Positions 1,169 to 64,000 are shown, numbered from the stretch's first letter. The stretch is 64,000 nt of DNA from an uncultured Chloroflexia bacterium (GCA_963737125.1 CAVTRL010000001.1:1758355-1822354); one strand, 5' to 3'. Notes: a model not told the origin generated them from the sequence alone. A program made the numbers and translations.

Positions 1169-1270
1169 GCGTTGCACCGCCGTACCGTCGCTGGCACGGC
1201 GAAGTTGCCTGGAAGAGGCACACTCCCGAGCGACCCGTCGAAAATTTCCGAACGTGCTGATTCAGACACT

Positions 1271-3111: not shown

Positions 3112-3120
3112 GAACGTGTA

Positions 3121-8409: not shown

Positions 8410-8578
8410 TGACCCCTCGCACCCCCGCACACACCGCGCTGTTGCCGACGTCCGCCGCCAACCAACCGATTGTACAGTGCAAAGGGGCCGTTCGGGACGT
8501 CCGGCGGAGCCGGCGGGCAAGCGATCGACGGCCCGCACGTGTACTGGAGGCAACGATCAGGTCGAAGGCGCGTAAAGA

Positions 8579-11583: not shown

Positions 11584-13043
11584 TTGAATGGAGCCCGCGC
11601 GTCAGCGCCGGACGAGAGGCACGTTCCACCTCGTTTCAGCGACTCGTGCCGGTGACCACGGCGGCCCTCGATCTGGTCCTGATCTACGGCGCTTTCATTC
11701 TGGCTTACTGGCTTCGGTACACGCTGCGGTTGGGGCCGACAATACAACAGCACATCAGTTTCTGGCGGTATCAGCCGCCTGCGCTTTTGCTCGCGGCCGT
11801 AATGATGGTGGTGCTAATCGCGAAAGACTCGTACCGGCGGCGCATGGGCGGGGACATAGTGGGAGAGGCGATCAACGTTTTCAGCGCCTCTACCATTTCG
11901 GTGGCGACGATTGTGGTGATCAACGCGATGCTGCATCAGTGGGAATATTCACGTGCGGTCATCCTGTACGTATGGGTACTGGCGATCGCTCTGGTGATCA
12001 CGGGGCGCGCTCTGCACCGAAGTATGCAGACGATGCTTTACCGAAAAGGACGCGGTGTGCGACGACTGCTGGTGGTCGGGGCTACCGACGTTGGAAAGAT
12101 GATCATGCAAAGCGTGATGAACCGGCCGGACTTCGGTTATCAGCTCGTGGGGTTCGTAGAGCATCGATCATCGCCGACCGTAAAAAACTTCGGCCGCTTT
12201 CGGGCGCTCGGCACGGTGGTAGACGTGCCGTCGATCGTGGAAAGCGCCGGGATCGATGAGGTGATAATCGCGCTTCCGGCTTCGGCACACGAGGATATGT
12301 GGCCCATTCTCAGTAGCTGCGAACGCCTCGGGGTCGGAGTGAAGCTCGTGCCCGACCTGTTCGAAATGGGCCTTGGTAGGGTTCAGATGGACGACATCTC
12401 GGGTATCCCATTGATCGACGTGCAGGAGCGCCCGCTGAGAAATGTCGCGCGAGTAGCGAAGAGATTCACGGATGTGGCGTTGGGATCGATCCTCTTGATC
12501 GCGACGACGCCGGTGGTGTTACTGCTGGCGCTATTGATCCGTCTGGAGTCGGCCGGGCCGGGCTTTCTTCGACAAGAGCGGATCGGCGTGGGTGGCCGCC
12601 GCTTTCTGTGCCTGAAGCTACGGACCATGCGGGTGGATGCAAACGATGTGACGGCGTCGCTACAAGCGATGAATGAAAGCGATGGGCCGCTCTTTAAGAT
12701 TCGGAATGATCCGCGGTGCACGGTGCTGGGAAAGAGAATCCGGCGACTGAGCCTTGACGAGCTGCCGCAGTTGTGGAACGTGGTGAAGGGCGAGATGAGC
12801 CTGGTAGGCCCGCGTCCAGCACTTCCGCACGAAGTTGAGCAGTACGATCTACGTCAAATGCGACGTCTGGAAGTGAAGCCAGGCATCACCGGGATATGGC
12901 AGGTGAGCGGACGGAGCGATCTGTCTTTTGACGAGATGGTGATGATGGATATCCACTACGTGGAAAATTGGTCGATTGGCCTGGACATTGCGATTTTGCT
13001 GCGAACCGTGGTCGCGGTCGTTGCCAGACACGGGGCGTATTGA
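11580..13043 (+). CDS. polyprenyl-phosphate sugar phosphotransferase (WbaP/exopolysaccharide 'sugar transferase' family)
   Basis: 487 aa; C-terminal ..LSLDELPQLWNVVKGEMSLVGPRPALPHEV..KPGITGIWQVSGRSD.. bacterial sugar transferase domain preceded by TM segments. Confidence 0.75.
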   Translation: MIEWSPRVSAGREARSTSFQRLVPVTTAALDLVLIYGAFILAYWLRYTLRLGPTIQQHISFWRYQPPALLLAAVMMVVLIAKDSYRRRMGGDIVGEAINVFSASTISVATIVVINAMLHQWEYSRAVILYVWVLAIALVITGRALHRSMQTMLYRKGRGVRRLLVVGATDVGKMIMQSVMNRPDFGYQLVGFVEHRSSPTVKNFGRFRALGTVVDVPSIVESAGIDEVIIALPASAHEDMWPILSSCERLGVGVKLVPDLFEMGLGRVQMDDISGIPLIDVQERPLRNVARVAKRFTDVALGSILLIATTPVVLLLALLIRLESAGPGFLRQERIGVGGRRFLCLKLRTMRVDANDVTASLQAMNESDGPLFKIRNDPRCTVLGKRIRRLSLDELPQLWNVVKGEMSLVGPRPALPHEVEQYDLRQMRRLEVKPGITGIWQVSGRSDLSFDEMVMMDIHYVENWSIGLDIAILLRTVVAVVARHGAY

Positions 13044-29494: not shown

Positions 29495-30482
29495 ATGGAA
29501 CCACGTGTTCTGGTGTATGTAGAGCAAGAGGATGGCGTGCCGAAGCGTACCGCGCTGGAAGCAGGGAGCAAGGCCGCGGAGCTTGCCGGGAATGGTGATG
29601 GAACCGTAACCGGTGTGGTGCTGGGAGTGGGAGCGGCACGATGCGTCGATGTGCTTCGCCGCCACGGATTCGATGAGATTCTGGTGTGCGAGGATGCCGC
29701 ATTCGGCGATTTTTTGGTCGATCCGCACGTGGAGATCGTGGCCCAGGTGATCGGCAATCGCCGGCCTCGGCGCCGTACTATTTCCCGATACCGGCCACAG
29801 CCGCGATATCGCCGCACGGGTCGCGGCCCGGGTGGGGGCAAGTCTGGTATCCGGTGTGGTCGATCTGACCTGGCGAGACGGTGCATGTTGAGGCGCAGGA
29901 GACGATTTTCGGGGGGAACTACGTCACGACGGTTGAAACTCGAAACGCCACAACCGGTGTGTTTTTGGTTCGGCCGAATGCGTTCGAGGCGCGCGAGACG
30001 CCGCGTGAGGGCGCCATTAGCAACCTAGAGTACGCGAGGGGCGAGCCCACGCAACGTGTCCGAATCGAGAAGGTGGTGGAGGAGCAGGGCGCCCCGATAC
30101 CGCTGGAGGAAGCCGCGATCATCGTGTCCGGCGGCCGGGGGCTGGGCGGACCGGAGCCGTTTCGCGCTCTTGCAGGAGCTTGCCGACGCGCTGGGAGGAG
30201 TGGTGGGAGCTTCTCGCGCGGCGGTCGACGCGGGGTGGATACCGTACTCGCATCAGGTTGGACAGACGGGACGGACGGTCAAGCCGTCGCTCTACATTGC
30301 CGATGGGGATATCCGGAGCGGTGCAGCACCGGGTGGGGATGCAGACCGCAGAGACGATAATCGCAATCAACAAGGACCCGGGTGCGCCGATTTTCACGTT
30401 GTCCGATCTGGCAGTAGTCGGCGACCTCTTTCAAATCGTCCCCGCTTTGACGGCGGAGATCAAGCGTCGGAAGGGAGCCTGA
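29495..30482 (+). CDS. etfA: electron transfer flavoprotein alpha subunit (at least 4 frameshifts)
   Basis: Conserved EtfA segments lie in different frames (29495.., [32 protein letters not shown] in a second frame, 29881.., 30056.., 30180..30482 ending ..[29 protein letters not shown]..). Confidence 0.75.
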
Positions 30483-30484
30483 CC

Positions 30485-31634
30485 CTGAATTTCGACCTTT
30501 CCGACGAACAAATCATGGTGCGAGATCTGGCCCGCGACTTCGCCACGAACGAGATGGCACCGAAGGCGGAGCATTACGACCGGGAGCACTCCGTTTCCGT
30601 ACGACGTGATCCAGGGATTGGCGGAACTCGGTTTCCTGGGGCTCCCTGTACCGGAAGAGTACGGTGGGGCGGGTGCCGACACGCTGACCTACGCGCTGGC
30701 CGTTGAGGAGCTCTCACGCGGTGACGCTTCAGTGGGCATCACGGTAGCAGCTCATACGTCGCTTGGCACCATGCCGTTTCTGCTATTCGGCTCTGAGGAG
30801 CAGAAACACGAATTCGTGCCTCCGCTAGCGCGCGGTGAGTCGCTCTGGTCATTCGGCCTGACGGAGCCCAACGCGGGGTCAGATGCCGGTGCGACGCGCA
30901 CGCAAGCGACGCTGACCGATGGTTCCTGGCGTGTGAACGGGGTGAAATCGTTCATCACGAATTCCGGCACGACCATGAGCGGGGGAGTAACTATCACCGC
31001 CGTTACCGGAACGTTGCCAGACGGTAAGGCGGAGATATCCAATTTGATCGTGCCGAGGGGCACACCCGGGTACTCGATTGCCAAAGACTACGACAAGATG
31101 GGCTGGCGGGCCTCCGACACTCACGAACTGGCGTTCAACGACGCGCAAGTGCCGGAGAACCGGCTGCTCGGCCCACGCGGTGAGGGGTTTCACCAGTTTC
31201 TAACGATTCTCGACGGCGGCCGGATTTCGGTGGCGGCGCTGAGCGTAGGGCTGGCGCAGGCGTGTTATGATGCCTCGTTCAAATACGCGCGCGAGCGGAG
31301 CCAGTTCGGGCGGGCAATCTCGAAATTCCAGGCGATCCAGTTTCGGCTGGCCGATATGGCGACGGAGATCGAGATGGCCCGCTTGATGACGTATAAGGCT
31401 GCCTGGCTGAAGGATGCCGGAAAGGACTTCCGGATGGCTGCCGGCATGGCAAAGCTCTACGCGACGGAAGTGGCGACACGCGCCGCGAACCACGCAGTGC
31501 AGATCCATGGTGGCTACGGAATCATGGAGGAGTTTCCGGTGGCTCGATACTGGCGGGACGTCAAGATCGGTGAAATCGGGGAAGGCACCTCCGAGATCCA
31601 GCGGACGGTTATCGCCCGACTGCTGGGCGCGTAA
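30485..31634 (+). CDS. acyl-CoA dehydrogenase (frameshift near 30600; start approximate)
   Basis: N-terminus ..[36 protein letters not shown].. in one frame, continuing as track ORF 30606..31634 (..[32 protein letters not shown]..). Confidence 0.75.
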
Positions 31635-31714
31635 TACAGTGGGAGTAGACGTCGCGCGTCGACTCGAACGTGCGCCCGCACCGCAGGCACCAGACCTTTC
31701 TAGAAAATAGCGTC

Positions 31715-32901
31715 ATGGAAGAAGTAGTTATTGTCTCGACGGCCCGCACGCCGTTCGGAAAGATGGGCGGCGCTCTCAGCCCATTGAGCGCGATCGATCT
31801 GGGCTCGTGCGTCGATTCGATCCGCGCTGGAACGGGCGCAGGTGCCGTTCGACGAGGTCGACGCAGGTAATCATGGGAACGGTCATCACGGCCGGTCTGG
31901 GTCAGATCCCGGCGCGGCAGGCGGCACTGAAAGCCGGGCTGCCCAAAGAGGTTTCGGCCCTGACGGTCAACAAGGTATGCGCGTCCAGTCTGAAGGCGGT
32001 CAATCTGGCCGCCCAGATGATCCGGGCCGGGGACGCCGACGTGGTGGTGGCGGGAGGCATGGAGAGCATGAGCAATGCTCCGTACCTCTTGCCCGGCGCA
32101 CGTTTCGGATACCGGATGGGCGACGGCGAGCTGGTCGACGCGATGATGCGCGACGGTCTCAACTGTCCTACCGGGTGCGTCCCCATGCACGAGTACGGAA
32201 GCGACGTGGCCGCGGAATTCGAGATCAGCCGGGAGGACCAGGATCGATGGTCGCTGCGCAGCCAGCAGCGGTACGCCGCAGCGCTGGACGCCGGGAAGTT
32301 TTCGGACGAAATCGTGCCAATCTCGGTACCGCAGCGAAAGGGACCGGCACTGCTGGTGGATCGGGACGAACAGCCCCGCCCGGACACGACCTTCGAAGGA
32401 TTGCAGAAGCTCAAGCCGCTCAAGCCGGGGGGCAGTGTGACGGCGGGAAACGCTCCCGGCGTCAACGACGGCGCGGCCGCGCTGGTGGTTATGTCGGGCC
32501 GGAAAGCGGCGGCGCTCGGCGTCACGCCGCTGGCCATTCACCTGGCGCAGGGCGAGGCAAACGACGAGAACCGCTATCTGCATACCGTGCCGGCGGATGC
32601 CATCCTTCGCGCTTTGAAACGGGCGAAGATCGACCTGGATCAGATCGGCCTATTCGAAATAAATGAGGCGTTCGCGGCGGTGACGCTGCGTAGCATGCAA
32701 ATGCTCTCGCTGGACGGCGAGAACGTCAACGTGAACGGCGGAGCAGTGGCGATCGGACATCCGATCGGCGCGTCGGGCGCGCGCATTCTGGGGGCATTGA
32801 TCCTCGAGATGGGCCGCCGCGGCGTGGAGTACGGCGCGGCAGGCATCTGCAGCGGCATGGCGCAGGGTGAGGCGACCGTGGTACGCCTCCCCTTCAGGTA
32901 A
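31715..32901 (+). CDS. acetyl-CoA C-acetyltransferase (thiolase); two frameshifts near 31800-31860
   Basis: MEEVVIVSTARTPFGK.. start; conserved ..VNKVCASSLKAV.. and C-terminal ..NVNGGAVAIGHPIGASGARIL..; N-terminal 45 aa in a different frame from the rest. Confidence 0.8.
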
Positions 32902-32940
32902 AGCGTCCGGGTGGTGTCTTGAGCGGAGCCGAAGCGTATC

Positions 32941-34087
32941 GTGGATATTGAGCTGACCCAGGACGAGACCGACATTCTCGACGTAGTACGGTCGTTCGCA
33001 CGCGAAGAAGTGCTGCCACGCGCAGCGGCGATCGACCGGGACGGTGAGTATCCGGTCGATCTGGTGCGTGCCATGGGGGAACTGGGACTGATGGGCGTGC
33101 CGTTTCCGGAAGAGTACGGCGGCGCAGACCAAAGGTATTTAATGTTTGCGCTGATCGTCGAAGAGCTATGCCGGGCGTGCGCCAGTACCGGCCTGATCAT
33201 GGACGTCAATATCTCGCTGTGCGGCGAGCCCATCTGGCTATTCGGCACCGAAGACCAGAAGCAGAAGTATCTGGGACGGCTGGCGCGCGGAGAGGCGCTG
33301 GGCGCACTGGCGATGACCGAACCGGAGGCAGGCTCGGACGCAGCGTCGATTCGGACGACAGCGGTGAAGGATGGCGATTGCTACGTCCTGAACGGCCGAA
33401 AGATCTTCATCACGAACGGTGAGGTCGCGGACATGTACATCGTGACGGCGGTGACCGACCCCGAGAAGGGAACGCACGGGATCACAGACTTCATCGTCGA
33501 AAAGGCATGGCCGGGTGTCTCATTCACGACTCACTACGAGAAGATGGGCATCCGCGGCGCACCGACCACGGACGTGGTGCTGGAGAACGTCGAGGTGCCG
33601 GTCGAGAACGTGCTGGGCGGCGAGGGAAACGGATTCAAAGTCACGATGGACACGCTCGACGCGGGGCGGATCGGCATCGCGGCGCAGGCGGTCGGTATTG
33701 CGCGCGCGGCGCTGGAGGACGCGACGGAGTACGTCAAGACCCGGCGGCAGTTTGGAAAGTCGATCTGCCGAATTCCAGGGCATGCAGTTCATGCTGGCCG
33801 ACATGGCGACAGCAATTCACGGCGCCAGGCTTTTAACCTTACGGGCGGCCGGTCTGCGCGACGCGAATATCCCGTGCGCGCGGGAATCTTCGATGGCGAA
33901 ACTGTTTGCAGGCGACACGGCGATGAACGTGACGACTGAGGCGGTCCAACTTTTCGGCGGGTACGGCTACATGCAGGAGTATCCAGTGGAGCGCCATATG
34001 CGAGACGCGAAAATCACGCAGATTTACGAGGGTACGCAACAGATCCAGCGAGTGGTGATTGCCCGCCAGGTGTTGAACGCCCGATGA
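32941..34087 (+). CDS. acyl-CoA dehydrogenase (frameshift near 33770)
   Basis: Track ORFs 32941..33939 and 33515..34087 together give a full ACAD (..[32 protein letters not shown]..). Confidence 0.75.
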
Positions 34088-35229
34088 ACTTCACTCTGAC
34101 CGACGATCAGGAAGCTATCCGCGACGCGGTACGCGACTTCGCACAGGGTGAAGTGGCGCCTCGCGCGGCGCAAATCGACCGCGACAATGTCTTTCCGCGC
34201 GATCTGGTGGAGGCGGCGGCGGGGCTCGATCTGCTGGGCATCGTCGTGCCGGAGCAGTACGGCGGGACCGGGCTGGACCATGTCTGCTTCGCGCTCTTCG
34301 TGGAGGAGATCGCGGCCGTCTCGGGCACGCTGGCCGTGATTCTCGACGTGCACACGTCGGTGGGTACCGAACCAATCATTGCTTTCGGAAGTGACGAACA
34401 AAAGCAGCGGTATCTTCCCCGACTGGCGCGCGGGGAGTATCTCGCGGCATTCGCGCTTTCCGAGCCTGAGTCTGGATCGGACGCCGCCAGCCTGACGTCC
34501 AGCGCCACTCTGGTCGACGGCTGTTATCGCTTGAACGGAACGAAGACGTTTATCACCAATGTCGGCGAGGCCGGACTCTACATCGTGATGGCACGCACCG
34601 GCGAGCCGGGAGCTCGCGGCATCTCGGCGTTCATCGTGGAGGCGGACACGCCCGGACTGTCGTTCGGGGCGCCGATGCACAAAATGGGCCTGCGAGGGTC
34701 GTCCACCGGCGAATTAGTGCTGCACAACGTCGAGGTGCCGGTGTCGAACCTGCTGGGCGACGAGGGACAGGGTTTCCGGGTGGCGATGAAGGCTCTGGAC
34801 AGCGGGCGGATCGGGATCAGCGCCCAGGCGGTCGGCCTGGCGCGAGGGGCGCTGGACCTGGCATCGTCGTACGCCACAGGAACGCCAACAGTTCGGCCAG
34901 CCGATTGCGCGCTTTGAGGGCATCCAGTTCATGCTGGCAGACATGGCAACCGCCATCGACGCGTCGCGGCTGATGACGTGGGAGGCAGCGGCACGCTGCG
35001 ACGCGGGGAAGCCCGTTTACGTCGTCGGCGTGCCATGGCAAAGCTGATGTCGACTGATACGGCGATGAAGGTTACGACCGACGCGGTGCAAATCCTGGGC
35101 GGATACGGCTATATCAAAGAGTTTCCGGCCGAGCGGTTCATGCGCGATGCGAAGGCGACCCAGATCTACGAGGGTACCAATCAGATCCAGCGTATCGTCA
35201 TCGCGCGCGACCTGCTGCGCGGTGGATGA
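34084..35229 (+). CDS. acyl-CoA dehydrogenase (frameshifts near 34880 and 35030)
   Basis: Track ORFs 34084..34917 and 34978..35229 plus an intervening third-frame segment (..[16 protein letters not shown]..). Confidence 0.75.
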
Positions 35230-48393: not shown

Positions 48394-50031
48394 ATGTCGA
48401 AACAGGTAACCGGGCGCCGTAGGCGCAGCGCCAGAATTCTCTGGCTGTTTTTCATACTCGTTTTCAGTTTTTTTTCGGAGTATCTGGTCGCCCGGGTAAG
48501 TGGCCGATCGTACGATTTCTTCGGTAACAGCAATTTAAATCGAAGCCGTGCACGCAAGATCCGTACTACCGCTTTACAGATGGGCGGCGTACTGATCAAA
48601 GTTGGGCAGTTTTTGAGTTCCCGCGTCGATTTGCTCCCACCCGAATATATCGAAGAGTTGTCGCTGCTGCAGGACGAAGTGCCCGGAGTTCCGTTTCCGG
48701 AGATCCGCACGGCAGCGGAAGGGGAACTGGGCGGTACCCTCGAGACATTTTACTCGAGCTTTTCGGAAGTTCCCCTGGCGGCGGCATCGCTCGGGCAGGT
48801 TCATCGGGCCACGCTGCCGACCGGCGAGAGAGTCGCGGTCAAAGTACAGAGGCCTCAGATTGAGTCGATCGTGGCGGCGGACCTGGCGAGTCTGCGGTAC
48901 ATCGTGAGCTGGCTGGAGAGGTTCACGGCGATCAAGCGCCGCGTCGACTTGACCGGCGTGCTCAAGGAGTTTGAGGAAACACTGAGCCTGGAATTGGATT
49001 ACACGGCCGAAGGCCACCATGCGGAACGAATCTCAGTCATGTTCAGGAACGACCCCGGGATCGCCGTGCCACGCGTGTACTGGTCGCACTCCACTTCCCG
49101 TTTGATCACGCTGGAGTATATGGAGGGCGTGAAGGTGACCGACTTTGCCGCGCTGGATCGGCTGCAAATCGACCGCACCATGGTCGCCGATATCTTGATG
49201 CGGGCGTATTTCAAGCAAGTGCTGGAGGTGGGATTCTTTCACGCCGATCCTCACCCGGGAAATATTGCGGTGCGTCCCGGTCCGGTGGTGGTGCTGCTTG
49301 ACTTTGGCATGGTGGGGGAGATCACGCCGACTATGCGCGATAGCATACGACGGATCTTTCTCGGCGTCATACGGCGCGACTTTGACCAGGTGCTCCTGGC
49401 CGCAGAGCGCCTGGGCTTCGTGGCGCGCGGGGCGGACCGACGCGCTCTCAAGCAGGCCCTGACCTGGATCGTGGACACCTTCTACGAGATGTCGCTGGGA
49501 GAGCTCCAGACGATCGACCCGCGTCTGGTACTGAGCGAGCTACAGGAAGTGTTGTTTTCCGAGTCGCTGCGGGTTCCTCCAAATTTCGCCTTTCTGGGGC
49601 GTGCTCTCGGCACGCTGGTGGGATTAGCGACCGCGCTTGATCCCAGTTTCCAGTTCGTCGAAGTAGCGGAGCCGTACGCGAGAAGCTTACTGCGTGAGCA
49701 GCGAGGCGTGATCCCGACTCTGCAATCGTTACGCAGGGAGGCCCGTAACCTGGGAGCGACGGCCTATTCGCTGCCCTACCTGGCGGCGACGACGTTGTCC
49801 GACGTGCAAGGCATGGAGAGCGAATTCAGCCAGAGAATCGAAGCGGTCTCCCGTGCGATGGAGCGCGTGGAGTACTCCATTCGGAGGGTCCTCTACGGCC
49901 TGCTGGTGCTGACGATTCTGTTTGCCTCCAGTACGGTACTACACCGAGATCCCGTGTTCACGACGATCGCGTTTGTGGCGGCTTTGTTGCTTCTGCTGGC
50001 GGCGGTTCTGCCGAGACGGAAACGGCGATAG
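48394..50031 (+). CDS. ABC1/UbiB-family atypical kinase with C-terminal TM anchor
   Basis: ..AAASLGQVHRATL..VAVKVQRP.. kinase-like motifs and ..FHADPHPGNI..; start at MSKQV within track ORF 48346..50031. Confidence 0.8.
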   Translation: MSKQVTGRRRRSARILWLFFILVFSFFSEYLVARVSGRSYDFFGNSNLNRSRARKIRTTALQMGGVLIKVGQFLSSRVDLLPPEYIEELSLLQDEVPGVPFPEIRTAAEGELGGTLETFYSSFSEVPLAAASLGQVHRATLPTGERVAVKVQRPQIESIVAADLASLRYIVSWLERFTAIKRRVDLTGVLKEFEETLSLELDYTAEGHHAERISVMFRNDPGIAVPRVYWSHSTSRLITLEYMEGVKVTDFAALDRLQIDRTMVADILMRAYFKQVLEVGFFHADPHPGNIAVRPGPVVVLLDFGMVGEITPTMRDSIRRIFLGVIRRDFDQVLLAAERLGFVARGADRRALKQALTWIVDTFYEMSLGELQTIDPRLVLSELQEVLFSESLRVPPNFAFLGRALGTLVGLATALDPSFQFVEVAEPYARSLLREQRGVIPTLQSLRREARNLGATAYSLPYLAATTLSDVQGMESEFSQRIEAVSRAMERVEYSIRRVLYGLLVLTILFASSTVLHRDPVFTTIAFVAALLLLLAAVLPRRKRR

Positions 50032-50429
50032 ACGTTTCGTTGCAGTTCGGTTCCCGGGTAGGATGCCGCGGCTAGAAAGGGCAGATTTTACCGTGCGGGC
50101 GGCAAACCACGAATGGCTGCCCGCTGGGCAATGTCGAGGAAGCACAAGGACCCCACGGCCGTGTCTCACCACCTGCGACGGCCGTAGGCCGCACCCGGTG
50201 TGGTGTGGCGCCTGCGGCTGGGGTGGAGGCAGGCCGTCAGCCCGGGATGATGGTGGTGGGGTGTGTCGCGCGGTCGTGGATGGCCGGTTCGAGGGGCAGG
50301 GCCACACCGCACACCGGCGGTGTGCTACGACGGAGATGACATCCGGGCATGTGGACGTGGCCGGGACGCAAAGTGCCGCGAGTCTTGTCGCTTAAACTGT
50401 GGAATCTGGGATAGTGCGGGAGGATAAGC

Positions 50430-50639
50430 TTGAGCTTGCGGGCGTTGATCGACGTGACGACCAAATTGATGACTGACGGTGAATACCGCAATCTGTTGGT
50501 GAACGATCCGAACGCGGCTCTTGCCCCGTTTAACCTGTCGGCCGACGAGAGTCAGGCGCTGCGCACGCGAGATCGCTGGCTGCTCGAGGAGTGCGGGTTA
50601 GAGGAATGGACCGCTCGATGGGTGTCGGCGCTGCGTTAA
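50430..50639 (+). CDS. small hypothetical protein (69 aa)
   Basis: Track ORF with helix-like ..EYRNLLVNDPNAALAPF..; preceded by about 400 bp of apparently non-coding sequence. Confidence 0.3.
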   Translation: MSLRALIDVTTKLMTDGEYRNLLVNDPNAALAPFNLSADESQALRTRDRWLLEECGLEEWTARWVSALR

Positions 50640-50727
50640 GCGGCTGCGCGCATGATTGACTGGGTTTTCATGCGCTGACTACAATGCTGGGCCGGTTCGC
50701 GATCAGCGGGCTTGCAGGTGGATACAA

Positions 50728-50804
<77 letters not shown>

Positions 50805-50832
50805 GATCCACCCCATGGGAGACCGCGGGGGA

Positions 50833-52149
50833 TTACCGCGTCGTCGGCTGCCGGCCAACGAGCCACACCGTGGTCGTGGGCAATTTGACGTAGCGGTACC
50901 GAGCGTCGAGATATCGCACAAACCCCGGCGGATAGCCGCTACTCGCGCCGCTGCTCATGACGACCGCCTGTGCCGCTCCCACACGTCGCTCGAGGTAGCG
51001 TGCATTCACCAGCACGCCGATATTCCAAAAGTAATGTGCCAGGGCGGGCCGATGCGCGAGATAGGCGTATTCGAAACGATCACCCAGGATCGCGCCGGAC
51101 GGCGTCGTGCGAGCATCCAGCAGGTGAACGGTGGGAGCTACATCCGATAGGTGAGCGGCGGTAATAAACAGTGGACTGACGCCTCCGGTCCGGACCACGA
51201 TGCCGGCGACAAGCGCCACGCCGAGGGCGATCGCGGCTACGAGTCGAATCGCCGGAGGTCGTAGACCGACGATCGATCGAGACGCGAGTAGAGCAGCAAA
51301 CGGAAGCGCCGGCACGAAGTAGTGGTAGTAGGTCTGGGGCGCCAAGACGAATGCTCCGGCGAGGAGAAAGCCGACTCGCAACCAGGCAGGTGCCGGCCGG
51401 AAGAGGGCGGGAATCGATAACACGTTGAGCGCCAACCAGAAGAGCAACGTCGTCTCGATCCGCTGGTCGACTGACATGGTCCACCGAGTGCTCTGAAATG
51501 TCACGGTTTGCGCGTACACGGCGTGGAGGTTGCCATAGAAGGGAGCAAGCAAGAAGCAGAACGTGACAACCGTGCTCAGCAGTACCAAGGGAGCGCGGCG
51601 GGGCGAGAGGAGAATGCAGACCGGAACGAAATAGAGTGCCGGGAACTTTACCCACACCGCGAGGGCCAGCAGAGCGCCGGCTCCAACGGTGAAGTACCAA
51701 TTCCGATCGCCACGGACCAGACAGGCAACCGCGGCCGTTCCCAGCATGGTGAGAAGCGGGTCCTGACCAACGCGCACACCGACAATCATGGCAAGGGGCG
51801 ATACGGCATACAGCAAGCCGGCTAGGAGCGCGGTACGGCGATCGAACAGCCGGATCCCGATCAAGAGCACCAGTACCGCCGTGATCGAGTCCACGATGGC
51901 CTCGGCGAGGCGTGCCAGAGGCCACCACAGGGAGCTGAGAGGCTCCAGAGCGCGAAAAAACACGAGTGCGCCGGGAGGATGGAAGAACATGAAGTCTTTG
52001 TACGGGACGGCCCCGTGCGCGAAGTCACGCGCCAGTAGTAACAACACGAATTCGTCGTAGTCATAGGTATTGGCGACGATGAGCCCGAACACCATCCTCA
52101 GGCTCAGTGCGCATACAAAGACGCCGGCGACCAGACGAACGAGTGGCAT
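50833..52149 (-). CDS. polytopic membrane protein, putative GT-C glycosyltransferase (DUF2029/GT87-like)
   Basis: 438 aa, multi-TM; N-terminal ..[18 protein letters not shown].. resembles the DUF2029-type mannosyl/arabinosyltransferase loop; assignment from memory. Confidence 0.45.
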
Positions 52150-52232
52150 GCGGGGCGCACTCCGTTCGGTCCCCGGTTCTTCCGCCCTCGATAGGTTACG
52201 AATTGTTGCGACCGATCTCGCCCGCGAGTAGA

Positions 52233-53336
52233 ATGTTTGGTCGAAAAGATGCTACGAGGCGGACGTCCCAAGCATCTATCTTATTGCCTGTGAAATGGAG
52301 CGCAGCCGGCTTGCGCGACACCTACAGGCGCGCGACGCCGTATGTCCTGGCGGTCTATGTAGCGTGTGTTGCGGGCCTTTTTCTGTTCTTCAACATGCGT
52401 TTGACCGTGGAGTGGGTGGCGATCATTCTCTTTGTCGCTGCCCTTCTGTCAGGGCGAGCACTACTGTTCGTGCGCGACTGGGGTGTATTCATCGCGGTGC
52501 TGCTGGCCTGGCAACTTGCATCGCCGCTCGCTACTCGATTCACCTTCCCCTGGCATCTGACCGAAATGGTGTCCGCGGACAAGTGGATGTTCTGGGGCAC
52601 GGTGCCGTCGGTGTGGCTCCAGCAGCACCTGTACCATCCGGGTCGTCTGGAGCCGTGGGACGTGCTGGCGGCAACCATGTATATGCTGCATTTCCTCTCT
52701 CCGCTGGCGGCAGGCTTTCTTCTCTGGTCGACGAATCGAGCGCTCTTCCAGAAGTTTGCAATCACCTTCGTACTGGTGGCGCTGGCCGGATTCGTGACCT
52801 ACATTGTGTACCCGGCGGTGCCTCCGTGGATGGCGGCTCAGCCTCTGGTGGCTGTCGGCAATCAGTATCTGTACCCGTGGGTCGCGGCGTCGCACTATCC
52901 CGGCGGCCTGCGCGGGGCGTGGGCGCACGCGCACGTCTATCTTCCCGGCGTACAGAACCTTTTCAACAGCATCGCGTCACGCTGGTACAACCCATATCAC
53001 GGAACGATTTTCTTCGGAAGCCTGCATCTCCATTACGACCAGGTGGCGGCCATTCCCTCCGAACACGCAATGTATCCGCTACTCTTCTTCTTGTTCCTGC
53101 GGCGTCAGTTCGGAAGCTGGGGGTACCTGGCACTGATCTATATTGCGCTCTTGCTGTTCAGCATCACCTACCTGGGACAGCATTACGTGATTGACGCGGT
53201 AGTGGGTTTTGTCTATGCCGGGATGGGCTACGCAAGCGTGATGCACGGCTGGCCCTGGCTGCGACAGCGGATGAAGCGTCGCGAACGCGCGAGAGCGTAC
53301 GTCCCGTCGGGAATGCGCGAACTCGAGGAAGCATAG
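52233..53336 (+). CDS. PAP2-superfamily membrane protein (phosphatase / inositol-phosphoceramide-synthase-like)
   Basis: Track ORF 52107..53336 trimmed to avoid the divergent gene; PAP2-like motifs ..IPSEHAMYP.. and ..LGQHYVIDAVVG... Confidence 0.45.
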   Translation: MFGRKDATRRTSQASILLPVKWSAAGLRDTYRRATPYVLAVYVACVAGLFLFFNMRLTVEWVAIILFVAALLSGRALLFVRDWGVFIAVLLAWQLASPLATRFTFPWHLTEMVSADKWMFWGTVPSVWLQQHLYHPGRLEPWDVLAATMYMLHFLSPLAAGFLLWSTNRALFQKFAITFVLVALAGFVTYIVYPAVPPWMAAQPLVAVGNQYLYPWVAASHYPGGLRGAWAHAHVYLPGVQNLFNSIASRWYNPYHGTIFFGSLHLHYDQVAAIPSEHAMYPLLFFLFLRRQFGSWGYLALIYIALLLFSITYLGQHYVIDAVVGFVYAGMGYASVMHGWPWLRQRMKRRERARAYVPSGMRELEEA

Positions 53337-53341
53337 GTGCA

Positions 53342-54940
53342 GTGAGTCCCGGCGACATGAGGCCAAGGCTGGCGCCGGCTCTGCGCGTGTTCGTACTGGC
53401 ATTGGTCGTGTACGGCTACTTTCTTCCCCGTTGGGCGGACTGGAACCAGGATTCGCGCTTTGACCTGACGCGAGCGCTGGTGGATCTGCATACTCTGCGA
53501 ATCGATCGATTTCACTTCAATACCTGGGACAAGGCGAAGTTCCGAGGACACTTCTACAGCGACAAGGCCCCGGGCACCGCGGTGCTAGGGGCGGCCGTGT
53601 ACGCGGCGTTTGCGCTGGGAAGAAATGCACCATTGGTCGATTCCGGCATCAAGGACGTCGAGTCCAACGGCGTCTGGAACATTGCGATACGTCTGGGAAG
53701 GACTTCGACTCAGAACTCGCCCGCACCGAAAGGCACCAATCTGGGGGGCTGTCAACGTTCGGGGGGCGGCGGGAACGTGCAATTCATCCCCTGGGGGAAT
53801 CGACTGTATCCGCCTTTTCGGGACTGGGCGCTTTCCAAGTACGTGACCACGGTCGGGGCAGTGGCTTTGCCGTCCGCGGCGTTTCTGGCATTCTTCTTCT
53901 GGTTTCTGGGCTTCTTTTCACGGCGCCTCTGGACGCGACTGGCGGCAACACTGGTCTACGGCTTCGCAACGGTGGCCCTGCCGTACTCCACGGTCTTCTA
54001 CTCTCACCAGCTAAGTGCCGCCTGCCTATTTACCGCGTTCGCCTTGCTCTTTTTATTTGGGAGGGGCCTTGCCGGCGGAAAAGCGGTGCTCGCCGCGGGC
54101 TTCTTGCTCGGCTTTGCCTTCTTCACGGAGTACACGGTAGCGCTGGCAATCGTGACGATCGGGATGTACGGGCTGTACGTTTGCCGACGCTCCGGATCCG
54201 CCATACTCGGGTTTCTGATAGCGGGAGTGATACCGGTTGGCGGACTGATGGCGTACAACGCGGCCGCATTCGGAAATCCTCTGGATACCGGTTACTCGCA
54301 CGATTTTTGCTGGTCGGCGGCTCAGGCCGGCGGATACGCTGGGTTCACGTATCCGCACCTCGCTGCACTTTTCGACCTCACGATCGGGCCCTTCCGGGGT
54401 TTGTTCTACGGCTCGCCAGTTCTCGTGCTGGCTCTGGCCGGGGGCGTGGTGATGAGCCGCCGGGGCATGAGAGTGGAAGCGGTCCTATGCCTGGGCACGG
54501 CGTTGGCGTTCATTCTTGCAATCAGCTCGTATTGGGGCTGGAATGGCGGCCAGGTGGACGGACCGCGGTATCTCGTGCCAATCGTGCCGTTTCTGGCATT
54601 TGCACTGTTTTTCTACCTCGACGCGGTGGCAAGGGCGAGGCCGGGCGTACTTGTTTTCGGGATACTCACTATCTGGTCGGTTGGAGCGGTCTGGGCAGAG
54701 TTTCTGGGCGGAGAGCTCTTTCCGCCTTCCGGAATGAGATATCCTCTGGTCAACTACTCGTTTCCAGCACTGCAACGCAACGAGATCGCCCCCAACCTCG
54801 GAATGTTTTTCGGTTTAAGCGGGTGGGTCTCGTTACTTCCGCTGGCGGCGGTCGCCGTTCTCATAGGAGCAAGCGCCGCGTTGCCACGGTCCAGGGGAAC
54901 CCGCGCGGCTCTCAACCGCGACGCTCCATACGCGCAATAG
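53342..54940 (+). CDS. polytopic membrane protein, putative glycosyltransferase
   Basis: 532 aa with many TM helices and a conserved-looking N-terminal loop (..WNQDSRFDLTRAL..FHFNTWDKAKFRGHFYSDKAPG..); no firm family. Confidence 0.35.
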   Translation: MSPGDMRPRLAPALRVFVLALVVYGYFLPRWADWNQDSRFDLTRALVDLHTLRIDRFHFNTWDKAKFRGHFYSDKAPGTAVLGAAVYAAFALGRNAPLVDSGIKDVESNGVWNIAIRLGRTSTQNSPAPKGTNLGGCQRSGGGGNVQFIPWGNRLYPPFRDWALSKYVTTVGAVALPSAAFLAFFFWFLGFFSRRLWTRLAATLVYGFATVALPYSTVFYSHQLSAACLFTAFALLFLFGRGLAGGKAVLAAGFLLGFAFFTEYTVALAIVTIGMYGLYVCRRSGSAILGFLIAGVIPVGGLMAYNAAAFGNPLDTGYSHDFCWSAAQAGGYAGFTYPHLAALFDLTIGPFRGLFYGSPVLVLALAGGVVMSRRGMRVEAVLCLGTALAFILAISSYWGWNGGQVDGPRYLVPIVPFLAFALFFYLDAVARARPGVLVFGILTIWSVGAVWAEFLGGELFPPSGMRYPLVNYSFPALQRNEIAPNLGMFFGLSGWVSLLPLAAVAVLIGASAALPRSRGTRAALNRDAPYAQ

Positions 54941-54993
54941 GTGAGGCGTATGAGGCCCATACCGCTTGACCGGTCGAGATCGAGGTCGGCGAT

Positions 54994-55863
54994 TTGAGGT
55001 GGTTTGCGATCCTGGCGCTGGTATGCGTCACAGCCGTGTGGGGATATACCTTCGTGGTGGTCCAGAACGCGATCCGACTTTACCCGGTGGTTCCGTTTCT
55101 CTCGCTCAGGTTCGCGTTTGGCGCACTGTTACTGTGCCCGCTCCTGCTGCGTGGAGCGAGGGACATAACCTCCGGGATCATGCCCGGTCTGGCGCTGGCG
55201 GCGGGCTATCTCTTTCAGACGGTGGGACTGGAGTACACAACCGCCTCACAGGCCGGCTTGTTGACCGGGCTATTTGTCGTGTTGACTCCGCTTTTGGAGT
55301 TTGCCGCCTATCGATCGAGGCCTCGATCGGTGACTGTGGTAGCAGTGCTGGTGGCATTTGCCGGGGTCGCGCTCCTGGCACTGACCGGCAGCACTCACAT
55401 GAGTCGCCGCATCGTACTCGGCGATTCGCTCGAGCTCGCCACGGCCCTGGCGTTTTCGGTCCATTTGATCCTGTTAGGACGAGCGTCGACGGGTAGAAAT
55501 TCCGGGCAGGTAGCAGTCGGACAAATTGCGACAGCCGCGGTGTTGTTCACGGCGGGAGCTTCAACCATGCGGGGCTACTCACCCGTGGCGCCGACGGTGG
55601 GAGTTGCGCTACTAATCACCGCAGCGGGCGCGACCGCCGCGGCCTTCTGGGTACAAACGTTCGTGCAGCAGCGATTGTCTCCGTCCCGAACGGCTCTGGT
55701 GCTAGTGTTGGAACCGGCCTTCGCAACCTTCTTTGGCTTCTTGCTGGCCGGCAACACGTTCACACACCTACAGGCGATCGGTGCCTCGTGCATCTTCGTG
55801 GCGCTGGCAGGTCATGAAATGACGCTCTCGCTCAAGCCGGGGACCCGCCCAGTGGCCGGCTAG
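54994..55863 (+). CDS. DMT-superfamily (EamA-like) transporter
   Basis: 289 aa, about 10 TM helices in two EamA-like halves. Confidence 0.65.
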   Translation: MRWFAILALVCVTAVWGYTFVVVQNAIRLYPVVPFLSLRFAFGALLLCPLLLRGARDITSGIMPGLALAAGYLFQTVGLEYTTASQAGLLTGLFVVLTPLLEFAAYRSRPRSVTVVAVLVAFAGVALLALTGSTHMSRRIVLGDSLELATALAFSVHLILLGRASTGRNSGQVAVGQIATAAVLFTAGASTMRGYSPVAPTVGVALLITAAGATAAAFWVQTFVQQRLSPSRTALVLVLEPAFATFFGFLLAGNTFTHLQAIGASCIFVALAGHEMTLSLKPGTRPVAG

Positions 55864-56599
55864 TAGCGAGGCCGATTCTCCTCGGGTAGCCCTCCGGCGT
55901 GCGCGCTACCTTTCGGTAGATGACAACGTACCGGTCGTCTCCGAGGCCAACGTCGACCGGTATTCGCGTCAGGGCTGTGCATTCGACCCGCAGAGCGCGC
56001 GCGGCGGCCGTAGCGGTGGCGATTTCGCCGCTGACATCGCCACTTTTGGGAAAGACCAAGAACCCTCCGGAACGGACGAACGGACTGCAAAGCTCGATCA
56101 GCGCGGGGAGTGCCGCTACGGCGCGCGCAAAGCAGAGGTCGGCCGCGTCGCGAAAGCGGTCCAACCAGGCGACTTCCTCGGCGCGGCGTGCCTCGACGGC
56201 GACGTCCTCCAGACCGAGCTCTTCGAGCATACGGGAGAGAAATCGAGCTTTTTTCTGGACCGACTCAACGAAGGTAAAGGACCAGGCCGGAAACAGGATC
56301 TTGAGAGGCAGCCCCGGCGCACCCGAGCCGGTGCCGACATCGACCGCGCGCACTGTTTTACCCGGGTCAACCACATCCCGAGGCAGATACGGGGCGATAG
56401 ACAATGAGTCCACGATGAGACGCTGCATCACGTCCTCGGGCGTGCGAAACGCGGTGAGATTGAAGGACCGGTTGGTTTCGATCAGACGGGAGCAATACGC
56501 TTCGAACAACTCGATCTGACGGCGCGACAAGTCGAGGCGCAGGGCGCGAGCTCCGGACTTCAACAGGGCGACGGCGGACGCGCTATTCGACTCGTTCAC
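55832..56599 (-). CDS. rsmG: 16S rRNA (guanine527-N7)-methyltransferase
   Basis: C-terminal 255 aa of track ORF 55832..57310: ..VDVGTGSGAPGLPLKILFP.. SAM-binding motif; GTG start at 56599 chosen. Confidence 0.75.
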   Translation of the reverse strand: MNESNSASAVALLKSGARALRLDLSRRQIELFEAYCSRLIETNRSFNLTAFRTPEDVMQRLIVDSLSIAPYLPRDVVDPGKTVRAVDVGTGSGAPGLPLKILFPAWSFTFVESVQKKARFLSRMLEELGLEDVAVEARRAEEVAWLDRFRDAADLCFARAVAALPALIELCSPFVRSGGFLVFPKSGDVSGEIATATAAARALRVECTALTRIPVDVGLGDDRYVVIYRKVARTPEGYPRRIGLATSRPLGGSPA

Positions 56600-57870
56600 G
56601 CTATCGATCTCGACTCTGTCGGGGGCCGTGCCGGTGCTCCGGCGGCGCGAGATCGCGACCCCACCAGCGTGGCGAGAAGCGCAGCCAGCAACGCCAGGGC
56701 CGGCGCCGCAAAAATAGCTGTCCGTACGCCGGTGTGCTCGGAAACGGTCGTAATAACGGACGCGACGATACCGGAGAGGCCGAACCCGAGCCCGAGCGTC
56801 AGACCGGAGGCCAGTCCTCGATTCAAGGGTAAGAATTCCTGCCCCTGGACCACCGTCACGGAATTTGACGCGAGCATGGTGGCACCGGAGAGCGCGATCA
56901 GTGGCCACACGAAGAGCGGCGGGACCAAAAGCGCCACGACCAGCAGTGGGACCGAGACCAAGAGCGATAAGACGACAGTGGGTTTGCGGCCATGCATGTC
57001 GGAAAGGTGGCCTCCCACCAGTCCACCTGCCGCTCCGGCGAGGGAGAAAACGAACGCGAAGTACGAGCCGAGCTCGGGCGCGAAGCCACGCAAATGGAAA
57101 TAGAGGGGAAGAAAAATGATCAAACAGTAGAGGGCGGAGCTTCGAATCGCGATGACGGACACGAGAAGTGTGAGCGGTTTCCAGACGTTGGCCACGGAGG
57201 TCTTGAGCACTTGCCACGAGAAGACTTCCGTGGAGGCGCCGGTGTGGGGCGTGTAGCGTGCCAGCGCGATGGTGAGTAACGCTCCGGGTACAAGCAGAGC
57301 GGGACTCCAATCGAGGCCTACGGTGGCGACAACCGCCGCGGCCACCGGCCCGAGCGCAAAACCGATATTGCCTCCCATCGAGAAAAAGGCCATGGACCGC
57401 CCCTTGTTGCTGGGACTCACCGAGTCCACCATGGCGGCCGCCTGGGGGTGAAATGCAGCGGTACCGAGGCCGCCGATGGCAGCAACGAGCAGCACCGTGA
57501 AGGTGGTGTTCGAGTGTGCAATGATGCCGGCCGCGACGCCGACCCAGAGCGGTCCGATGATCGCAAAGATACGGCGACCGGTGCGATCGGCCATCAAGCC
57601 GAAAATAGGCTGCAACACCGAGCTTCCGATGAGGTACACGAGTAGCACGAAACCGGCCGCGGCGGTCGTGATGCTGTGTCGAAGTACCAGGTACGGCATG
57701 AGCGAGGTTATGAAGTTGCCATACATGTCGTTGACCAGGTGTCCGGCGCTGAGAAAACCAACACGAAGGTAGTCGGTACCGGAGCGGAGAGCGGATTGAT
57801 GGCGAGTTTCTTTTGCAATCACGGCGCGAACCTCGGGGAAGGTTTTGTAATCCGATTGTGCCCGCTGCAT
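56596..57870 (-). CDS. MFS transporter
   Basis: 12-TM MFS-like ORF (..GLMADRTGRR.. loop motif); start set at the Met that avoids overlap with the divergent L,D-transpeptidase start. Confidence 0.7.
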   Translation of the reverse strand: MQRAQSDYKTFPEVRAVIAKETRHQSALRSGTDYLRVGFLSAGHLVNDMYGNFITSLMPYLVLRHSITTAAAGFVLLVYLIGSSVLQPIFGLMADRTGRRIFAIIGPLWVGVAAGIIAHSNTTFTVLLVAAIGGLGTAAFHPQAAAMVDSVSPSNKGRSMAFFSMGGNIGFALGPVAAAVVATVGLDWSPALLVPGALLTIALARYTPHTGASTEVFSWQVLKTSVANVWKPLTLLVSVIAIRSSALYCLIIFLPLYFHLRGFAPELGSYFAFVFSLAGAAGGLVGGHLSDMHGRKPTVVLSLLVSVPLLVVALLVPPLFVWPLIALSGATMLASNSVTVVQGQEFLPLNRGLASGLTLGLGFGLSGIVASVITTVSEHTGVRTAIFAAPALALLAALLATLVGSRSRAAGAPARPPTESRSIA

Positions 57871-59091: not shown

Positions 59092-60804
<1,713 letters not shown>

Positions 60805-62459: not shown

Positions 62460-62950
62460 GTAGCTGTGACCCCGCGAGGAGACAGCCGACGGTACTGCAA
62501 GCAAGTGTTCGGCGATACGAGTGCTGGACGTCGTGCAATTCCGGGGCGAGGTGACGGCAGTGCTGGTCGCGCGAGCGCAATCGTAGACGTGCTGCTCGTT
62601 CTGTCGCGACGAACTGCGGTTACGACTTCTGCTCGGACGTGACCTGCACCGATTGGCTCGATCGGCACCCACGCTTCGATGTGGTGTATCACATCACGAT
62701 TCGTGCCGGACACTGGATCCGCTTCCGCCTGAAAGTGCAGACGAACGACGGCGAGCCGGTGCCGACGGTCATTCCGGTGTGGCGGCGCGCCAACTGGGCC
62801 GAACGCGAAGTATGGGACCTGTTTGGCATCGAGTTTGACGGGCATCCCGACCTGCGACGGCTTCATGCTGCCGGAGGGATGGATCGGACATCCCCTGCGC
62901 AAAGACTACCCGCAGACTCAAATCGCACTGCCGCGTCCCAAGAGCCGACA
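62460..62950 (+). CDS. nuoC: NADH-quinone oxidoreductase subunit C (frameshifts; boundaries approximate)
   Basis: ..RFDVVYHITIRAGHWIRFRLKV..ANWAEREVWDLFGIEFDGHPDLRRL.. with N- and C-terminal parts in other frames. Confidence 0.6.
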
Positions 62951-62989
62951 AGGTTAGGCGATTCGATTCCATGGTCACCACCGAACGCA

Positions 62990-64000
62990 CGCGGCGACAC
63001 CATGGTCCTCAACATGGGGCCGCACCATCCGTCGACCCACGGCGTGCTTCGACTGCTGCTGGAGCTCGACGGTGAAACCGTCGTCAGCGTCGTGCCCGAC
63101 ATTGGGTATCTCCACACCGGTATCGAGAAGACCGGCGAGCGACTGAAGTACCAGCAGGTCATCACGCTGACCGACCGCATGGGATACCTCGACAACATGC
63201 TCGACGAGCTCGCGTACGTGCTGGCCGCGGAAAAACTGCTCGGGATCGAGGTGCCGGAACGGGTGAAGTGGATCCGGGTCCTGCTCGGCGAGCTGGAGCG
63301 AATCTCCAGCCACTGTGTCTGGCTCGGGACCCACGCGCTCGATCTCGGCGCGCTGAGCATGTTCATGTACGGCTTCCGGGAGCGCGAAAAGATACTCGAC
63401 ATCAAAGAGACCATCAGCGGCGTCCGGATGATGACGTGCTTCATTCCGCATCGGCGGTTTGATGGCCGATCTACCGCCGGAGTTCGAGCCCAAGGTCCGC
63501 GATTTTCTGAAGATACATGCCGGCCCGCATCGACGAATATCGAGGAGCTGCTGACCGCGCAACGAGATCTGGCTGGAGCGCACCAAAGGGGTCGGAGTCA
63601 TCCTGCCGGCCGAGGTAGCGCATCGAGATGGGCTGTTCCGGACCAACGCTGCGGGCTTCCGGCGTGCCGTACGACATCCGGCAGGAGACGCCGTACAGCG
63701 GCTACGAGAACTTCGACTTCGACGTGATCGTCGGCGAACACGGGGATGTATACGACCGGTTTCTAGTGCCGGGTGCGGGAGATGCGCGAGAGCCTGCGCA
63801 TCATCGAACAGGCGACTGGACGGAATGCCGGACGGCCCGTGGCGAATCGACGACCGCAAGATCGTCCCACCGCCAAAGGATGAGATCGTCACGAGCATGG
63901 AGTCGCTGATCCACCATTTCAAGCTGTTCACGGAGGGTCTGAAGCCTCCGGTCGGCGAGGTGTACAGCGCCATCGAGGGCGGCCCGAGGGGAGATGGGGT
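62990..64000 (+). CDS. nuoD: NADH-quinone oxidoreductase subunit D (partial, runs off window; frameshifts)
   Basis: ..[38 protein letters not shown].. then ..[32 protein letters not shown].. in another frame. Confidence 0.7.

Follow-up and report, generated by a model that had tools for sequence, protein, structure and literature searches.

What do three neighboring membrane-protein genes, two encoding likely glycosyltransferases and the one between them a PAP2-type protein, do for the cell envelope of a soil-type Chloroflexota bacterium? The question is raised by positions 50833-54940 of a 64,000-nucleotide stretch of DNA from an uncultured Chloroflexia bacterium (GCA_963737125.1, CAVTRL010000001.1:1758355-1822354), which was analyzed at full length and is called the window below. 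An earlier note on this DNA had described a DUF2029/GT87-like protein, a PAP2 protein with motifs resembling those of inositol-phosphotransferases and a second GT-C-like protein, had considered the family calls weak, and had suggested that the trio might carry out the extracytoplasmic elaboration of an inositol glycolipid. We found three intact open reading frames (ORFs) at exactly these coordinates, all coding for large polytopic membrane proteins (about 11, 8 and about 12 transmembrane (TM) segments predicted from hydropathy), and refer to the products as P1, P2 and P3. Profile, fold and motif evidence now makes the calls stronger than the note had allowed, and neither family assignment nor topology prediction placed any of the three clearly in an unrelated family. 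P1 and P3 are GT-C-type proteins, P2 appears to belong to the transferase branch of the PAP2 superfamily, and genes of these two kinds recur side by side in related genomes. The trio probably builds or decorates a cell-surface glycolipid.

Assignment of the three proteins

P1 (438 amino acids) is encoded at 50833-52149 on the minus strand, and P2 and P3 follow on the plus strand. The ORF of P2 spans 52107-53336, and the GTG start listed for it runs into the 5' end of P1. We took the ATG at 52233 as the start, because a 100% identical public protein of 367 amino acids begins there; the divergent starts of P1 and P2 are then separated by 83 bp (52150-52232). The ORF of P3 (53342-54940) begins 5 nt after the P2 stop, and in relatives stop and start overlap. 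Its public counterpart has 527 residues against the 532 of the ORF, a length that would move the start 5 codons further on, to 53357. The three occur as called proteins (P0389, P0121 and P0001) on one 2.35 Mb NCBI contig, and their relatives are labelled Chloroflexota, mostly from soil metagenome-assembled genomes (MAGs). A consensus promoter scan of the region between P1 and P2 gave one weak sigma-70-like site at 52206-52234; over 50000-56200, promoter and terminator sites were no more numerous than in shuffled sequence, and the scan is silent on operon structure.

P2 belongs to the Pfam family PAP2_3 (PF14378), which it matches at 63.6 bits (cut-off 27); all 120 P2 homologues among the matches listed carry the same domain. 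The single sequence retrieved nothing usable from the PDB and a profile was needed; built from 18 homologues, it found the yeast inositol phosphorylceramide (IPC) synthase AUR1 at E=1e-4, with the best phosphatase, YodM/PgpB, next at 0.09. An AlphaFold (AF2) model of moderate confidence (pLDDT 74.8) was matched by Foldseek to IPC synthase (9vj4_A, E=4.2e-5; 9ivc_A, 6.6e-5) and, more weakly, to SMSr (0.15), LpxE (0.16) and PgpB (0.5). In this model, the fold of P2 is nearer to IPC synthase than to the PAP2 phosphatases.

The motifs of P2 are P194-A-V-P-P-W199, P275-S-E-H278 and S310...H317-Y-V-I-D321, and five residues (H153, S276, H278, H317 and D321) are invariant in the 18 homologues. In a HMMER alignment, the His-His-Asp triad H278/H317/D321 (C2 His; C3 HxxxD) corresponds to H255/H294/D298 of AUR1, and H153 and S276 correspond to H157 and S253. 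Mutagenesis of AUR1 showed the three triad residues to be essential and H157 and S253 to be auxiliary, and the structural paper proposes a phospho-inositol-histidine intermediate (PMC13133130). At two further sites, P2 carries AUR1-style replacements of phosphatase residues: the C1 Lys/Arg motif (KxxxxxxRP) is replaced by PAVPPW, where AUR1 has PAAPPW, and the position of the C3 Arg is Ile311 (S310-I311), where AUR1 has S-T and YodM has S-R. The predicted topology has 8 TM segments, with both termini in the cytoplasm because each carries 8 K/R (positive-inside rule), and with the catalytic residues on the outer face. No Lys or Arg is invariant on that predicted outer face, where the invariant residues are His, Asp, Gln, Asn, Trp and Tyr. 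Taken together, the Pfam family, profile, Foldseek matches, triad, missing phosphatase Lys/Arg residues and topology point to an enzyme that resembles AUR1 more than the phosphatases and belongs to the transferase branch of the PAP2 superfamily. The earlier call of a PAP2 protein of the inositol-phosphotransferase type was right.

P2 shares with AUR1 (PDB 9ivc, 9vj3/9vj4), of which Ipt1 is a homologue, its Pfam family, the triad, the auxiliary His and Ser, the P-A-x-P-P-W motif, the lack of phosphatase Lys/Arg and a non-cytoplasmic active site (predicted for P2). It differs in that identity is only about 18-20% in the Foldseek alignments and no Kei1-like partner is present. The genomic partners of P2 are GT-C genes and not genes of the ceramide pathway or of phosphatidylinositol (PI) synthesis, and, in contrast to AUR1, Ipt1 and BT_1522, there are several paralogues per genome. 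For P2, a glycan or glycolipid acceptor, by Ipt1-like logic, is more likely than ceramide.

P1 scores as a GT-C glycosyltransferase of the PMT_2/ArnT-like type, with Pfam matches to PMT_2 (38.7 bits, cut-off 26.1) and PMT (26.8 bits, cut-off 22.7), and it combines about 11 TM segments with a C-terminal soluble domain of about 119 amino acids. Its first outer loop bears the acidic motif T28-x-D30-x-D32-E33-F34, in which D30, D32 and E33 are invariant among 22 homologues. A search of the PDB with the single sequence gave nothing usable. The best match of the profile made from the 22 homologues was glycosylphosphatidylinositol (GPI) mannosyltransferase 1 (PIG-M; 23gx_B, E=1.9e-8), with 'DYDEF' of P1 (D30-Y-D32-E-F) paired with 'DIDYF' of PIG-M; besides PIG-M, only marginal matches to mechanosensitive channels appeared up to E=10, and PimE, ArnT and PMT were not among them.

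The GT-C part of the earlier description of P1 therefore stands, whereas its GT87 label does not: P1 had no match to GT87/DUF2029 (PF09594), the family of PimE and MptA, at E<=0.01. Some orthologues do carry precomputed GT87 or PIG-U matches, and orthologues are named ArnT-family or GT39. The suggested kinship with lipid-linked mannosyltransferases gains some support from PIG-M, which mannosylates a PI-anchored glycolipid. PIG-M (GT50) is the closest solved relative, sharing the GT-C assignment and the aligned acidic motif after TM1, whereas P1 differs from PimE (GT87) in scoring with PMT_2 and PMT. As another likeness to the PIG-M and PimE systems, the genome of P1 also encodes PimA and PatA-like proteins, the cytoplasmic starter enzymes of phosphatidylinositol mannosides (PIMs), but P1 is not adjacent to the PimA operon.

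No Pfam model matched P3, and neither its single sequence nor its profile matched a PDB sequence. The NCBIfam model LA_3751/LA_3752 putative glycosyltransferase (NF047440, Leptospira) gave 50.8 bits, below its cut-off of 200. The AlphaFold (AF2) model was confident (pLDDT 85.8, pTM 0.89), and all of the top 25 PDB matches found by Foldseek were GT-C enzymes (DPY19, EmbA/B/C, ArnT, AftB, ALG9, STT3, AftA, Pmt4 and PglB), which bears out the call of a second GT-C-like protein. Matches to ArnT, Emb, AftB, ALG9 and DPY19 had a Foldseek probability of 1.00 and TM-scores of 0.35-0.49. Consistent with this fold, P3 has an N-terminal TM bundle, about 12 TM segments in all, and a first outer loop of 142 amino acids with a conserved Asp; a long first outer loop with an invariant Asp is likewise found in ArnT/Emb-type enzymes. 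The motifs are PRWADWNQDSRFD (residues 24-36), NTWD58 and YSDK70APG73. Across 38 distant representatives, D58 never varies, and K70 and G73 reach at least 90% conservation; to us, the conserved D-K-A-P-G motif recalls the EKPP motif of ArnT. P3 differs from ArnT/Emb-type GT-C enzymes in forming a separate large family (18,520 clusters at 50% identity with E<=1e-3, of which 3,213 with E<=1e-30). As Pfam gave only two weak PMT_2 matches on the 38 distant members, no existing Pfam model describes this family. The families of P1 and P3 are distant homologues of each other (hhalign probability 96.4%).

Two other assignments were rejected. An O-antigen ligase was set aside because P3 folds as GT-C, with Wzy_C found only as separate genes in the clusters of distant P3 homologues, and a LytR-CpsA-Psr (LCP) phosphotransferase because none of P1, P2 and P3 had an LCP-family match.

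Recurrence of PAP2_3 and GT-C genes

All 13 orthologous loci recovered, from at least 13 related Chloroflexota genomes, retain the trio. By itself this counts for little as a sign of coupling, since the housekeeping genes on either side are conserved to the same degree, and synteny among close relatives was not used as evidence. Two observations tell more: the close spacing of P2 and P3, which are 5 nt apart here and overlap in relatives, and the pattern seen in a neighborhood survey of 31 PAP2_3 loci with flanks of up to 10 kb. The same genomes carry further PAP2_3 paralogues, most of which adjoin GT-C genes in different arrangements. In group B (about 36% identity to P2; 6 loci), PAP2_3 is followed directly by a PMT_2 protein of about 480 amino acids. 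In group C (about 35% identity; 7 loci), a WecA/MraY-family (Glycos_transf_4) gene and a UDP-glucose-dehydrogenase-like gene stand on one side of PAP2_3, and a short-chain dehydrogenase/reductase (SDR), a methyltransferase and a GT-C gene, the last a weak homologue of P3, stand on the other. At a further locus (L030), the PAP2_3 start is overlapped by the gene for a 640-amino-acid PMT_2 protein. Since orthologous loci do not count as separate events, the survey amounts to about four independent PAP2_3/GT-C arrangements. In the window itself, the sole two GT-C genes detected flank the sole PAP2_3 gene. The recurrence of PAP2_3 paralogues beside GT-C genes argues for functional coupling.

The pairing is a feature of these Chloroflexota. 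Its extension beyond them was rejected, as the polytopic neighbors in loci from Acidimicrobiia and Actinomycetes were transporters of the major facilitator superfamily (MFS). A PAP2-superfamily membrane enzyme next to an envelope-glycan GT-C is known from the mycobacterial AftB-UbiA-Rv3807c locus, to which the trio is alike in this respect. Rv3807c is a canonical PAP2 phosphatase acting on a polyprenyl-phospho-sugar phosphate, whereas P2 is of the PAP2_3 transferase type and is without the phosphatase Lys/Arg residues. In the literature searched we found no description of a module of PAP2_3 and GT-C, nor of the GT-C family of P3. Each of the three proteins falls within a known superfamily; it is the recurrent AUR1-like plus GT-C module in Chloroflexota that is apparently new.

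The paralogous loci show several features of their own. A seven-gene cluster around a PAP2_3 paralogue is conserved in L024, L026-L029, L031 and L032 (for example, L029:6635-13492); it contains GT-C, S-adenosylmethionine-dependent methyltransferase, SDR, PAP2_3, WecA/MraY-family transferase and UDP-glucose-dehydrogenase-like genes, with a GT9 gene nearby in L024. This cluster resembles a pathway that makes a modified lipid-linked sugar, and as a system it is better defined than the trio. In an Acidimicrobiia MAG (L033:2758-4620), the PAP2_3 domain occupies residues 429-594 of a 621-amino-acid stop-to-stop frame and is preceded by up to about 400 unannotated residues, so that the ORF may encode a fusion protein.

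Paralogues of P1 (about 45% identity) directly follow large DUF5666 proteins at L042:3340-9101, L044:4317-7386 and L040:886-2853, and one such locus also holds a second PMT_2 gene; a DUF5666-containing phosphoesterase lies near a solo PAP2_3 paralogue. The DUF5666 proteins beside P1 paralogues could be glycoprotein substrates. Distant P1 homologues were rejected as members of the trio, being paralogues in other contexts. After distant P3 homologues come one or two unannotated proteins (about 560-610 amino acids) and then PMT_2 proteins (L004:9574-12893, L005:9485-12723 and L007:9496-16146). These tandem arrays of putative GT-C genes close Wzy/GT2/GT4 clusters, and BNR-repeat proteins follow in L004 and L007.

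A tentative role in a surface glycoconjugate

The inositol part of the earlier proposal drew on an ino1/PimA-like operon, which is real and lies at 2-4230 on the minus strand of the window. ino1 (3121-4230) matches Inos-1-P_synth at 128.7 bits and the NCBIfam inositol-3-phosphate synthase model at 546.5 bits, below the equivalog cut-off of 638. Two PatA-like acyltransferases (2194-3111 and 1271-2194) match Lip_A_acyltrans, and for both the best NCBIfam match is PIM acyltransferase (PatA), at 127.6 and 149.7 bits with a cut-off of 209. PimA (2-1168, continuing past the window edge) aligns over its full length with M. smegmatis PimA (2gej/4n9w) at E=2e-60, the next GT4 match being at 6e-24. Early cytoplasmic genes of PIM and lipomannan synthesis (ino1, PimA and PatA acyltransferase) are thus present, with three NCBIfam scores below cut-off; no phosphatidylinositol phosphate (PIP) synthase gene was seen in the window. 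Judged from these genes, the organism very probably makes PI and acylated PI-mannosides, which suggests that acylated PI-mannosides occur outside Actinobacteria; we found no paper on PIMs in Chloroflexota.

We propose that the trio is an outward-facing envelope module in which head-group phosphotransfer and glycosylation from polyprenyl-phosphate sugars act on one glycoconjugate, a tentative reading that we hold with somewhat less than even confidence. By analogy with AUR1, Asp321 of P2 would activate His317 for attack on the phosphodiester bond of a phospholipid in the outer leaflet; diacylglycerol would be released and a phospho-head-group-enzyme intermediate formed on P2. His278 would then help to pass the head group to an acceptor hydroxyl on a glycolipid or glycan, in Ipt1-like fashion. 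The most plausible donor would be PI, because AUR1 prefers PI, BT_1522 acts in phosphoinositol-lipid production and the ino1, PimA and PatA-like genes are present; on account of the same operon, PI-anchored glycolipids could serve as acceptors for a PIG-M-like enzyme. P1, as a PIG-M/PMT_2-like enzyme, and P3 would add sugars from polyprenyl-phosphate sugars at the outer face, to the same membrane-anchored glycolipid or lipoglycan as P2, and the EamA protein encoded downstream may flip a lipid-linked donor. What the analysis itself establishes is the folds, the catalytic motifs, the predicted topology, the gene spacing, the conservation and the repeated pairing of PAP2_3 with GT-C; we infer which donor, acceptor and sugar are used, in what order the steps occur, and that the three proteins share a single product.

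Several observations weigh against a joint module, and many of them would suit the view that the three genes are neighbors by descent only and have unrelated jobs, for example with P1 O-mannosylating secreted proteins, P3 serving a separate polysaccharide and P2 acting on membrane lipids; we consider that view doubtful. The flanking housekeeping genes (TsaBDE, ABC1, the small NHLP-like ORF, GidB, urocanase and nuo) are syntenic in the clade too, so that conservation of the trio is not special. P1 is transcribed divergently, and its 45%-identical paralogues stand in other contexts, by DUF5666 proteins and another PMT_2 gene. The distant homologues of P3 (about 40% identity) belong to Wzy/GT2/GT4/rhamnose polysaccharide clusters that hold other GT-C genes and no PAP2_3 gene, a setting that links this family to the assembly of surface glycans. 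The closest P2 paralogue group (about 57-62% identity) is solo, with no GT-C neighbor, and PAP2_3 homologues of Acidimicrobiia and Actinomycetes lie near MFS transporters, not GT-C genes. Against a purely inherited neighborhood stand the P2-P3 spacing of 5 nt or overlap, the fact that PAP2_3 and GT-C genes adjoin in three further arrangements of these genomes that are not orthologous to the trio, and the position of the window's only detected GT-C genes on either side of its only PAP2_3 gene. In the 31 loci, all 35 GT-C-like ORFs detected were within 2.5 kb of PAP2_3 and none was in the 284 kb of outer flanks, a count to be read with the hidden Markov models in mind, which were built from the same neighbors and which other GT-C families in the flanks may escape. 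As for inositol, the donor and acceptor of P2 are not readable from sequence, 46.6 kb of DNA with housekeeping genes separates the ino1 operon from the trio, and no ino1, pimA or PI-synthase gene was among the annotated neighbors of the PAP2_3 module loci (31 loci). Extracytoplasmic elaboration of an inositol glycolipid therefore stays a reasonable hypothesis, whereas its tie to the ino1/PimA operon was not borne out by gene linkage.

The activity of P2 could also be read in other ways. It might dephosphorylate lipid phosphates or pyrophosphates, or transfer phosphate in the manner of LpxT, and in this way support the GT-C enzymes: polyprenyl pyrophosphate released on the outside would be recycled, or a lipid-linked intermediate would lose a phosphate, on the model of PgpB/BcrC or of Rv3807c by AftB. 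Membership of the PAP2 superfamily, the NCBI name of the orthologues ('phosphatase PAP2 family protein') and the presence of LpxE and PgpB among the Foldseek matches speak for such an enzyme, and the group C arrangement fits carrier recycling because PAP2_3 there adjoins a GT-C gene and a WecA/MraY-family gene that would make polyprenyl-PP-sugar. We nevertheless judge it unlikely, since P2 has AUR1 replacements in place of the C1 Lys/Arg and C3 Arg of YodM/PgpB, has no invariant Lys/Arg among its predicted outer-face residues, and, whether searched by sequence or by fold, scored roughly three orders of magnitude better with AUR1 than with any phosphatase. The nearness to AUR1 could in turn mean that P2 is a true sphingolipid enzyme, an IPC or PI-dihydroceramide synthase of the Bacteroides kind, whose inositol sphingolipid the GT-C enzymes would glycosylate. 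AUR1 is the best solved relative of P2, the only NCBIfam match of P2 is the PI-dihydroceramide synthase model, and Bacteroides BT_1522, an AUR1 homologue required for phosphoinositol-dihydroceramide production, shows that bacterial enzymes of this type exist (PMC9246714). That match (NF052609), however, reaches 44.6 bits against a cut-off of 480, so that P2 is not an orthologue of BT_1522, the sole characterized bacterial enzyme; the low score counts against the proposed glycoconjugate module as well. No serine palmitoyltransferase-like gene was seen among the scanned window ORFs, and several PAP2_3 paralogues per genome are hard to fit to one ceramide step. Nor are sphingolipids known from Chloroflexota, and we regard a sphingolipid role as highly improbable.

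If the glycoconjugate module is real, AUR1-type head-group transferases would extend beyond sphingolipid synthesis, and bacteria would use them as modules alongside GT-C enzymes in making surface glycoconjugates. It would also open a way into the envelope chemistry of abundant soil Chloroflexota, of which almost nothing is known, assign a role to some members of a GT-C family of more than 18,000 clusters (50% identity) without a Pfam model, and carry PimA/PatA-type inositol glycolipid biology beyond Actinobacteria. A bolder version, which we think improbable, is that Chloroflexota carry an Ipt1-like family of AUR1-type transferases that move inositol phosphate or another phospho-alcohol from a membrane phospholipid to an outer glycan or glycolipid, each paralogue paired with its own GT-C. 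This would be a previously undescribed bacterial route to phospho-decorated lipoglycans and would supply a class of candidate enzymes for adding inositol-phosphate caps, for example to the phosphoinositol-capped lipoarabinomannan (PILAM) of fast-growing mycobacteria; we know of no enzyme identified for capping PILAM. If the module is wrong, these would be ordinary envelope enzymes, which annotation pipelines routinely name 'PAP2 phosphatase', 'ArnT family glycosyltransferase' and 'hypothetical protein'.

Neighboring genes and other features of the window

Downstream of P3, 53 nt away and on the same (plus) strand, lies a gene for a 10-TM transporter of the EamA/DMT family (54994-55863; Pfam EamA, 84.2 bits). 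EamA is likewise downstream of P3 in L001/L012, L008, L013 and L034 and is absent in L002/L003/L009, L010 and L014. It is a possible accessory and a candidate flippase for a lipid-linked sugar, and its membership of the module is uncertain.

On the other side of the trio, a tRNA-Pro (CGG) gene at 50728-50804 on the plus strand is convergent with P1 and lies 29 nt from its stop codon. Between the ABC1 kinase gene and P1, a conserved 69-amino-acid ORF (50430-50639, plus strand) is nearly identical in L002. It scores 34.3 bits (cut-off 40) with the Os1348 family of the NHLP clan, which resembles precursors of ribosomally synthesized and post-translationally modified peptides (RiPPs), and its relatives have a weak Pfam Frankia_peptide match.

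Apparent frameshifts split or fuse many window genes (23738-26567, 30056-34917, 55832-57310, 59195-60159 and 62639-63727). PolA is spread over two overlapping ORFs, the acyl-CoA dehydrogenases include several truncated ones, of which one is fused to a fragment of electron transfer flavoprotein (ETF)-alpha, and urocanase is a 225-amino-acid fragment against 528-553 amino acids in relatives. NuoC and NuoD form a fusion ORF, and the GidB ORF is lengthened to 492 amino acids. This looks like long-read assembly error or pseudogenization, and the trio is unaffected.

A GT4 glycosyltransferase gene and a Bac_transf (polyprenyl-phosphate sugar-1-phosphate transferase) gene with a CoA_binding_3 domain occupy 10450-13043 on the plus strand, adjoining selB (8579-10453) and a sigma-54 activator (7030-8553). 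This pair is a separate start point for a lipid-linked glycan.

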